From: a virus
Taxonomy: Duplodnaviria; Heunggongvirae; Uroviricota; Caudoviricetes
DNA: 38,841 nt
Reading direction: 5' to 3' (one strand)
IMG/VR virus record: IMGVR_UViG_2541047816_000002
Each line of letters begins with the position of its first letter. The first letter of the stretch is position 1. Positions 20,356-20,938 of the stretch are shown here, piece by piece. The translations under genes and the position numbers were made by a program. The notes under the pieces are model-generated. The model did not search any database. It was not told where the DNA came from and was given only the letters and a program-made list of their open reading frames with translations.

Positions 20356-20700
20356 ATGACTCAAAACTATGAACTGATTGTGAAAGGGATCCGCAATTTT
20401 GAGAATAAAGTTACGGTAACTTTAGCGTTACGGGACAAAAAACGCTTTGACGGTGAAATTTTTGACCTGGACATCTCGCTGGACCGTGTTGAAGGTGCCG
20501 CGCTGGAGTTTTATGAGGCAGCAGCCAGAAGGAGCATCAGACAGGTCTTCCTGGATGTTGCTGCCGGGTTATGTGAAGGGGATGAGCAGTCGCCGGAAAA
20601 GCGCCCCGTAATTTTAGAGGCGCAGGATGTGTTGATAACCTACAGAGGAAAACTACCGGGAATAATTACGGGTTCTCTGAAGAGTCCGCCGAAATGGTAA
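20356..20700 (+). CDS. Hypothetical protein inserted between holin and endolysin (possibly YdfR/DUF1327-like)
   Basis: 114 aa; GGAGAG RBS; starts 5 nt after holin stop. Confidence 0.5.
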   Translation: MTQNYELIVKGIRNFENKVTVTLALRDKKRFDGEIFDLDISLDRVEGAALEFYEAAARRSIRQVFLDVAAGLCEGDEQSPEKRPVILEAQDVLITYRGKLPGIITGSLKSPPKW

Positions 20701-20938
20701 TTTTACCAGCATATTTTTCATCCAGTAATACAGCAAGCCGCCTGAAAGAGTCTTGTTGTTCCTGAGACCATTTGGGATTGCATGATTCAAACTGGATTGA
20801 TGCCAGCGTTGATTGCATCTGTTCCCTTGGAATTGAGAATGCCAGATATGAGAAGGCGACGGTAAGGGTATTCACGTCTTCCCGAAGCCTGGAAATGCTG
20901 TCGAGCAACTCCTGTAGAGAAATGGTGTTATTGTCCAT
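20666..20938 (-). CDS. Hypothetical protein (90 aa), antisense-oriented within the lysis cassette
   Basis: ATG at 20938 with GAGGA RBS 8 nt upstream; 3' end overlaps the 114-aa gene by 35 nt. Confidence 0.45.
   Translation of the reverse strand: MDNNTISLQELLDSISRLREDVNTLTVAFSYLAFSIPREQMQSTLASIQFESCNPKWSQEQQDSFRRLAVLLDEKYAGKITISADSSENP

Follow-up and report, generated by a model that had tools for sequence, protein, structure and literature searches.

A backward-facing gene in a prophage lysis cassette of Escherichia coli and a structured leader RNA conserved upstream of its phage-borne relatives

The lysis cassette of a lambdoid Escherichia coli prophage, IMG/VR record IMGVR_UViG_2541047816_000002 (38,841 nucleotides (nt); the whole stretch is referred to here as the window), contains a gene for a protein of 90 amino acids (aa), which we call X, that is encoded against the direction of the late operon. 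Our results establish X as a genuine protein-coding gene under purifying selection and as the variable element of the cassette. They lead us to favor, with modest confidence, a model in which X is an autonomous, independently transcribed cassette of the moron type that is expressed in the lysogen, belongs to a class of backward small genes in late operons, and is organized as a module in the way described below. X itself is already in the databases, where PGAP and phage depositors call it a hypothetical protein, and its counterpart in phage HK022 was called a moron in 2000. What appears to be new is the recognition of these antisense cassettes as a class, the convergent partner that recurs with them, and a leader RNA that is supported by covariation and has no Rfam family. 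A prophage near-identical to the one studied here adjoins ompW in strain 120899.

The product of X matches the family phrog_2411, to which no function is assigned, over its entire length (residues 1-90 of 90). We compared ten homologous DNA copies, from the window, phage Chlobot, E. ruysiae, a BL21-lineage strain, two other E. coli genomes, three metagenomic contigs and Citrobacter. The ratio of nonsynonymous to synonymous substitution rates (dN/dS; Nei-Gojobori, codons 1-79, with the overlap with the neighboring gene excluded) lay between 0.10 and 0.47 and was mostly 0.1-0.35; variable columns were distributed 20/12/43 over the three codon positions, with third positions dominant; and the X frame was free of stops in all ten sequences, down to 61% nucleotide identity. 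The full-length family match, the low dN/dS, the third-position variation and the uninterrupted frame are the reasons for regarding X as a real gene. An initial annotation of this DNA, made from the sequence alone, had already read the antisense open reading frame (ORF) as a gene with a good GAGGA ribosome-binding site, and both statements hold: the frame is conserved at the protein level, and the Shine-Dalgarno (SD) sequence, GAGGA at 20949-20945 on the minus strand, lies 6 nt ahead of the ATG at 20938, with AGGAT invariant in the eight E. coli-type sequences and the ATG conserved too.

We give almost no credence to the alternative that the minus-strand frame arose by chance, or that the true gene lies on the late strand, as a co-directional mirror ORF (20772-20978; 110 aa in E. 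ruysiae). The mirror frame is open in four of the ten sequences and is the sole other frame with an equally low ratio of nonsynonymous to synonymous polymorphism (pN/pS 0.27), a consequence of sharing its third codon positions with X. It is, however, interrupted by stops at differing positions in the remaining six, which led us to reject it as the actual gene, whereas X has no stops, has a conserved SD and ATG as well as the full-length PHROG match, and has homologs at 24-40% identity in which the helices are conserved.

An AlphaFold2 (AF2) model of X from a diverse alignment (mean predicted local distance difference test score, pLDDT, 82.6) places helices at residues 8-35, 38-51 and 59-79. 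The protein is acidic (isoelectric point 4.5) and has no transmembrane segment, and the model is consistent with an acidic three-helix cytoplasmic protein. The stretch of 35 base pairs (bp) that overlaps the neighboring gene encodes its disordered tail, with pLDDT below 50 from residue 86. Of the two genes lying between holin and endolysin, Pfam identifies the 114-aa ORF as YdfR/DUF1327 and leaves X without a match, as do NCBIfam and PADLOC. The one exception, a 15-residue match of X to the anti-silencing protein Mip (E 0.037), was dismissed. A sequence search of the PDB with the X profile gave no match, and a literature search covering X (by its WP accessions, phrog_2411 and ybl58), DUF1327/ydfR together with holin, and HK022 srb returned nothing functional.

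The locus as a whole is a phage-21-type lysis cassette (pinholin S, signal-anchor-release (SAR) endolysin R, Rz/Rz1) plus a convergent accessory module: it has a PF04971 holin, a PF00959 endolysin with a SAR-like segment, and a PF03245 Rz with an internal Rz1. All four ORF coordinates of the initial annotation (holin, two intervening ORFs, endolysin), the 35-bp overlap of the convergent 3' ends, and the S21-type holin and endolysin identities (PF04971, 112 bits; PF00959) were reproduced. Its premise that S and R are normally adjacent was wrong for this cassette type, in which S-ydfR-R is the common order. That arrangement, without X, is found in hundreds of Shiga toxin (Stx) and lambdoid phage records, and ydfR has matches in 4,304 of 5,426 complete E. 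coli genomes; ydfR is therefore a widespread late-operon passenger and the usual occupant of this slot, not an unusual insertion. Its product scores 145.2 bits against PF07041 (cutoff 25) over residues 1-111, matches phrog_406 full-length, and bears the PGAP name "YdfR family protein". What remains of the proposed two-gene insertion is that X lies within DNA missing from related cassettes; the variable element is X alone.

This variable segment of approximately 290 bp corresponds to an alignment gap at 20706-20978 against phage 640R1 and at 20692-20983 against Stx2_EH2201, and thus represents extra DNA at a position where closely related cassettes have none. X also deviates in base composition, being AT-richer than the flanking lysis genes: the GC fraction is 0.451 for X, 0.478 for ydfR and 0.410 for the spacer, compared with 0.537 for S and 0.551 for R (0.54-0.55 across S, R and Rz). 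Extra DNA and deviating composition are both properties by which morons are recognized. The X-less cassettes retain the promoter-like box upstream of X and the first half of the adjacent hairpin (both described below), which fits loss of X better than gain, although the direction is uncertain, and does not fit the arrival of ydfR and X in one recent insertion event. The 1.7-kb region surrounding X matches 370 phage records, mostly of Stx phages, and just three of these cover at least 80% of it. By contrast, 1,117 of the 5,426 complete E. coli genomes carry the X segment at 80% coverage or more. E. coli B strains have the order essD-ydfR-X-rrrQ in a Rac prophage remnant beside trkG (L013:1974-3873, from the BL21-lineage strain T7Express_Crystal); in BL21(DE3) and REL606 this copy of X (WP_000370546.1) is 86.5% identical. 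Some copies of X are decaying, since database entries named ybl58 (P0061, P0045) include frameshifted or truncated alleles with identical termini and a middle part that is out of frame; P0061, considered as a distant homolog, was rejected as a frameshifted X copy.

A word-indexed search recovered 62 close relatives of X in Escherichia, Shigella and Citrobacter, and just 20 emerged when 1.84 billion representative proteins were searched exhaustively with the profile. Distant members of the family (P0065, P0066, P0072, P0074 and P0077) also match phrog_2411. In phage contexts each homolog again runs antisense and is overlapped at its 3' end by a small convergent partner, with overlaps of 7-35 bp recurring. 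The partner of the Citrobacter X is a convergent, overlapping gene of 238 aa, and this pair precedes a lambda-type holin and a CHAP endolysin. In phiSTEC1575-Stx2k the order S-ydfR-X is followed by a different lysis module in place of R. Tail genes M and L flank the distant homologs P0066 and P0073, and P0065 adjoins terminase genes. Across these contexts the X/ydfR module travels independently of S and R. Stand-alone chromosomal copies exist as well: P0077 (92 aa; L025:3001-3279, L026:1463-1741) is a distant homolog flanked by dinI and bssS, at a distance of a few kb from rne, and has neither leader nor partner, and L024 and L028 hold further such copies.

These contexts also bear on the proposal, raised in the initial annotation, that X affects lysis timing. 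X sits between S and R, and soluble cytoplasmic lysis regulators are known in other phages, T4 RIII among them, which is why we considered X as a regulator of holin timing or SAR endolysin release during lytic growth. We regard such a role as very unlikely: homologs also occur within tail clusters, adjacent to terminase genes, at ordinary chromosomal loci and upstream of unrelated holins, the endolysin gene next to X has been exchanged in phiSTEC1575-Stx2k, and the antisense orientation is awkward for co-expression with the late genes.

The regions upstream of phage-borne X homologs from unrelated contexts align with one another. Scanning viral contigs for exact 15-mers added no X genes but uncovered this shared leader: its most conserved 15-mer, GGATGGCTGATTAAC, occurs 54 times in IMG/VR contigs, and approximately 40 of these occurrences have the whole leader architecture followed by quite different small ORFs. 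In an alignment of 22 sequences the leader consists of a TAnnnT hexamer, a 6-8 nt spacer that separates it from UCAGCC in 22 of 22 cases, the invariant UCAGCCCG, hairpin 1, a linker, hairpin 2 closing around the loop GGAUGGCUGAUUAAC, AGGA, and ATG. RNAalifold predicts a helix, P1, in which UCAGCC pairs with GGCUGA to enclose hairpin 1. Across P1 and the two hairpins 93% of alignment cells are paired, compared with 23-41% in slid controls, and ten pairs are changed on both sides (6 of 8 in hairpin 1 and 4 of 6 in hairpin 2); none of 500 shuffles reached the observed values. Because the 3' strand of P1 sits in the loop of hairpin 2, the arrangement implies a pseudoknot or alternative folds. The leader resembles P1/P7 c4, P4 CI and IsrK (Rfam clan CL00128) in that a transcript encoding small proteins starts with a structured RNA. 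It differs from them in that no Rfam 15 family, C4 and isrK included, matches it at the gathering score or at E<=10, and a literature search did not find the motif.

A covariance model of the leader (R1) gave 33 matches at E<=0.01 across 59 loci, among them all phage-borne X homologs and gp06 of phage Stx2-86 (46.9 bits), and a separate search of the HK022 locus gave 91 bits upstream of gp23. The same model did not find the leader at the chromosomal X homologs or in the bor regions of loci L002 and L003. The proteins encoded behind the leader are 60-95 aa long and fall into at least ten sequence families; X is weakly related to one of these (hhalign 65%, E 6e-5), which in turn connects to two others. 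Most leader cassettes are antisense to neighboring large phage ORFs and have a convergent partner. We lean toward the view that they constitute a cassette class in temperate phages of Gammaproteobacteria, composed of a -10-like box, a structured leader, an SD, a helical protein of 60-95 aa and usually an overlapping convergent partner. Directly upstream of several full leaders (L019:2870-2905, L022:2870-2900, L008:20-50) an A-run leads into a GC hairpin, as in an intrinsic terminator read on the complementary strand, which would halt late-direction transcription that is not antiterminated just beyond the cassette.

In the window this leader is collapsed. The hairpin with a 7-bp stem that had been noted upstream of X (CAGCCTG-N6-CAGGCTG) is real and was correctly spotted, albeit 2 nt from its actual position; it is not a stand-alone element, however, but a remnant of a much larger conserved leader. 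By itself its fold is only slightly more stable than that of shuffled sequence (z -1.85), and 9 of 200 shuffles match it. Its core GCCTG-N6-CAGGC is conserved in E. coli-type X copies, all of which have the short leader form, and alignment with Stx2-86, L019 and L007 establishes its homology with the full leader's UCAGCC...GGCUGA boxes. The window and Stx2-86 are near-identical from the R start codon to CCCTGGATATGTT, after which Stx2-86 runs into its full leader while the window passes from UCCAGCC almost straight to CAGGCUGCUAAC; of the loop box, only GGCUGCUAAC is left. The hairpin is therefore helix P1, left after the loss of hairpin 1, the linker and half of hairpin 2, and the window carries a deletion derivative of the leader rather than a full member. 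The 5' box UCAGCC(CG) following TAnnnT is found as TATGTT-N7-UCCAGCC, with a one-base insertion in the box. The only Rfam 15 match over 20300-21100 was ar15, at E 0.72 and with 17 bits where the gathering score is 40.

Stx2-86 resembles the window in more than this flanking sequence. Its gp06 (104 aa) is an antisense gene in the same slot, between a YdfR-family gene (gp05) and R. The YdfR-family gene of Stx2-86 is a 268-aa long form, unlike the 114-aa gene of the window, and gp06 was rejected as a homolog of X (hhalign probability 0.1%). The Qin prophage of E. coli K-12 (essQ-ydfR-rrrQ-rzpQ; YdfR P76160) likewise has a DUF1327 gene between a class II holin and a lysozyme and, as in most Stx phages, lacks an antisense X. 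The YdfR of the window has 114 aa and a GSLKSPPKW tail, compared with 103 aa for the K-12 protein (PMC13232886).

Morons are autonomous units that are expressed from repressed prophages (PMC3594210). Like X, the lambda genes bor and lom, HK97 gp15 and cor are extra DNA in a late operon with deviating GC content and a presumed promoter and terminator of their own (PMC3594210), and bor, too, lies near the lysis genes in antisense orientation to the late operon. The products of classical morons are membrane or outer-membrane proteins with roles in exclusion or virulence, whereas X is soluble, acidic and helical, and the convergent partner and structured leader are features of X-type cassettes and not of classical morons. 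A closer parallel is HK022, whose annotation (NC_002166; Juhala et al. 2000) assigns gp22 and gp23 ("srb protein"), encoded between tail genes I and J, to a moron. As at the X locus, a small gene in the late direction overlaps a small antisense gene (gp23, 73 aa) within the late operon; gp23 is helical, similar in size to X, contains EVTALKLAFGLLF where X has DVNTLTVAFSYLAF, and is preceded by a member of the same leader family. The two loci differ in that the HK022 leader has its full form while that of the window is reduced to P1, in that the HK022 site is the tail cluster rather than the lysis cassette, and in that gp22 lacks a YdfR-type tail. The family that includes the gp23-like proteins scores a probability of only 1.3% in hhalign against X.

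Because the relatives of X are built like independently transcribed morons, and the HK022 pair was annotated as such, expression apart from the late operon is in our view the most plausible mode for X. We envision a scenario in which X is transcribed from its own promoter, with TATGTT at 21005-21000 as the -10 element and a start near 20993, independently of Q-dependent late transcription. The protein would then be made in the lysogen, as proposed for the HK022 morons, by transcription opposing the late operon. The messenger RNA would begin with the 5'-terminal hairpin, be translated from GAGGA/ATG, run antisense into the 3' end of ydfR, and possibly end at the weak candidate terminator at 20623-20597. 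With the interior of the leader deleted in this E. coli lineage, P1 is left as the 7-bp hairpin. The X protein most likely binds another protein, either of the host or of an incoming phage, and convergent transcription of X may also dampen leaky read-through of S-ydfR-R.

Several observations weigh against this interpretation. The leader of the window is degenerate: the covariance model has no match upstream of X, and its best match in the window has an E value of 0.97. The evidence from this locus is for that reason limited, and the role of the full leader may have been lost here. P1 is invariant across the family and so has no covariation support, only complementarity and conservation. A scan for consensus sigma-70 promoters found none upstream of X, and the -10-like TATGTT box has no convincing -35 element. 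The candidate terminator, a 7-bp GC-rich hairpin with U4, is weak (z -1.05) and was not flagged by a terminator scan. Fold searches with the X model gave generic helical matches only and no functional clue. Finally, X is rare in sequenced phages, and because it was found in just 3 of 50,697 phage records, many of its genomic copies may sit in defective prophages. Two other promoter readings were set aside. A promoter chosen by eye, TTGCCT-19 nt-TACAAT, is unlikely, as its -10 element ends 14 nt before the ATG and would put the SD at the extreme 5' end of the message, and as TACAAT becomes GACAAT or TAGCAT in other alleles. By inspection, the spacing of the upstream box does not suit sigma-54.

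The recurrence of the convergent partner suggests a different model, in which X is functionally coupled to YdfR as an antagonist, chaperone or antitoxin-like regulator that recognizes the C-terminal tail of its partner, the two forming a two-component system. X is always annotated next to a YdfR-family gene in E. coli genomes, and the convergent overlap recurs in Citrobacter, L008, L019, L022 and L029. The C-terminal tail of ydfR, RGKLPGIITGSLKSPPKW, is common to partners of X homologs, several of which end in a YdfR-like ...GKLPGIITGSLKSPPKW despite differing, unrelated N-terminal parts. Among 6,967 distinct open frames the corresponding pattern, (K/R)G(K/N)x3-7(I/L)(I/T/F)G(S/D)L..PP.., has no matches other than YdfR-type proteins and X partners, although it was written post hoc. 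The tail motif is missing, however, from the partners in L017, L029 and HK022; X is intact in L010, where ydfR is largely deleted; chromosomal X homologs have no partner (L024, L025, L028); and ydfR occurs without X in at least 1,000 genomes and hundreds of phages. Neither YdfR nor X matches a toxin-antitoxin or defense profile (PADLOC; nothing relevant in Pfam or NCBIfam), and overexpression of ydfR was not reported to be toxic (PMC13232886). On this evidence we consider functional coupling unlikely. K-12 YdfR binds RNase E at its N-terminal, catalytic domain and co-purifies with RNA, and its interaction surface has been mapped to residues 1-72 (PMC13232886), which correspond to the conserved DUF1327 part. 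A PDB sequence search with YdfR gave no match, and by sequence it is no relative of a solved structure.

A second alternative places the main function in the RNA: the antisense transcript, through transcriptional interference or duplex cleavage, would silence leaky expression of S-ydfR-R in the lysogen, and the protein would be secondary. In X-less cassettes the promoter-like box and the 5' box are retained and point into ydfR, the antisense overlap with ydfR is at least 35 bp, and the leader is more conserved than the ORFs downstream of it, which belong to at least ten sequence families. It is difficult to reconcile a secondary role for the protein with its purifying selection (dN/dS 0.1-0.35, with the ORF intact at 61% nucleotide identity), with the conserved SD, and with the existence of leaderless chromosomal homologs of X; RNA and protein functions are, moreover, compatible with each other. 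We judge this alternative to be more doubtful still than coupling to YdfR, and continue to favor X as an independently expressed moron-type gene.

The leader invites a broader proposal, which we put forward tentatively and rate somewhat below an even chance: that there exists an undescribed class of mobile antisense expression cassettes in the late operons of temperate phages, defined by a possibly pseudoknotted leader (UCAGCCCG, a covarying hairpin, and a covarying hairpin around GGAUGGCUGAUUAAC), and that this leader is a new cis-regulatory RNA that controls at least ten families of small helical proteins, HK022 gp23 and Stx2-86 gp06 included, and sets their timing in lysogens. X and its hairpin would be the local trace of this class. 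One candidate mechanism is that the leader is a CsrA-type target, as the loop AGGGAUGG resembles the CsrA consensus from in vitro selection (SELEX) and the SD contains a second GGA. A further candidate is a role as a 5'-terminal stabilizer against RNase E, made notable by the binding of RNase E by the neighboring YdfR.

Coordinates of the features of the X locus, of tail-bearing partner regions and of leader copies (window positions unless a locus is given)
Feature	Location	Strand	Basis
S21-type class II holin (pinholin), dual start MYQM	20136-20351	+	PF04971, E 9e-33, 112.5 bits; phrog_9876 and phrog_20, both holin
ydfR-family gene (DUF1327), 114 aa, late-operon passenger	20356-20700	+	PF07041, phrog_406
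Candidate intrinsic terminator of X within ydfR, GCGCCUC-9 nt-GGGGCGC then UUUU	20597-20623	-	fold -12.3 kcal/mol
Tail-bearing partner regions	window 20641-20700; L007:3239-3340; L019:3261-3330; L022:3248-3320		
3'-end overlap of ydfR and X, 35 bp	20666-20700		ORF coordinates
X, 90-aa antisense gene, family phrog_2411, WP_000369850.1	20666-20938	-	phrog_2411, E 1.1e-58
Segment present here and missing from X-less S-ydfR-R cassettes (~290-bp indel)	20692-20983		alignment with 640R1 and Stx2_EH2201
Hairpin CAGCCUG-UUGCCU-CAGGCUG, collapsed leader remnant (helix P1)	20971-20990	-	fold -12.9 kcal/mol; alignment with Stx2-86, L019, L007
Box CCCTGGATATGTT with -10-like hexamer TATGTT (21005-21000), 7 nt upstream of 5' box UCCAGCC; candidate X promoter	21000-21012	-	common to Stx2-86 gp06, L019 and L007 leaders
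R21-type endolysin, Ala/Gly-rich N-terminal SAR-like segment (SAR function predicted)	21044-21577	+	PF00959, E 1.3e-23; phrog_7 (endolysin)
Rz spanin	21876-22343	+	PF03245, E 4e-51
Rz1, embedded in Rz	22096-22281	+	ORF list
Leader copies	L084:2007-2124 (HK022); L002:4466-4585 (Stx2-86); L019:2907-3023; L022:2901-3021; L030-L083 (IMG/VR)		covariance model/15-mer

Other features of the window were recorded alongside the lysis genes. The gap between R and Rz holds a strong terminator-like hairpin (21668-21700, 13 pairs) followed by a 57-aa ORF (21701-21874; phrog_6632, with a hydrophobic segment), the region 21668-21874 being a further insertion within the lysis cassette. A second small antisense ORF (61 aa, 22967-23152, minus strand) lies downstream of Rz/Rz1, where other lambdoid phages have bor; its counterpart in phage 783R2 is annotated as a DUF3950 protein. 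A hairpin resembling an intrinsic terminator (20068-20096, plus strand; 12 pairs and a T-run) lies between the esterase-type ORF at 18132-19985 and the holin start, and late transcription must pass it, presumably by means of Q-modified polymerase. Further upstream, between the Q antiterminator and this 617-aa ORF, whose homologs in phages are annotated as SASA/YjhS-type 9-O-acetylesterases, three transfer RNA (tRNA) genes (Met, Arg, Arg) precede two tandem copies of the small RNA STnc100 (136 and 161 bits), at 16906-17155 and 17232-17909. In passing, no stx genes were noticed at this position, which is the site that carries them in Stx phages. The early region encodes C4 antisense RNA, isrK and DicF at 4988-5459 (minus strand), with C4 and isrK within 4988-5176, and a sok antitoxin RNA adjoins a hokD-type toxin at 11840-12015 (plus strand), a Qin-like accessory set.

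Approximately one in five sequenced E. coli strains, the BL21 lineage included, carry X backward in a prophage lysis operon. If X is expressed in lysogens, it becomes a candidate factor for lysogenic conversion, exclusion or modulation of the host, and its convergent transcription may help to silence a dangerous pinholin/SAR-endolysin cassette. The leader is common to many unrelated small phage genes, among them an HK022 moron that has gone unexplained for 25 years, and provides a handle for finding and studying small proteins expressed from prophages and the regulation to which they are subject.

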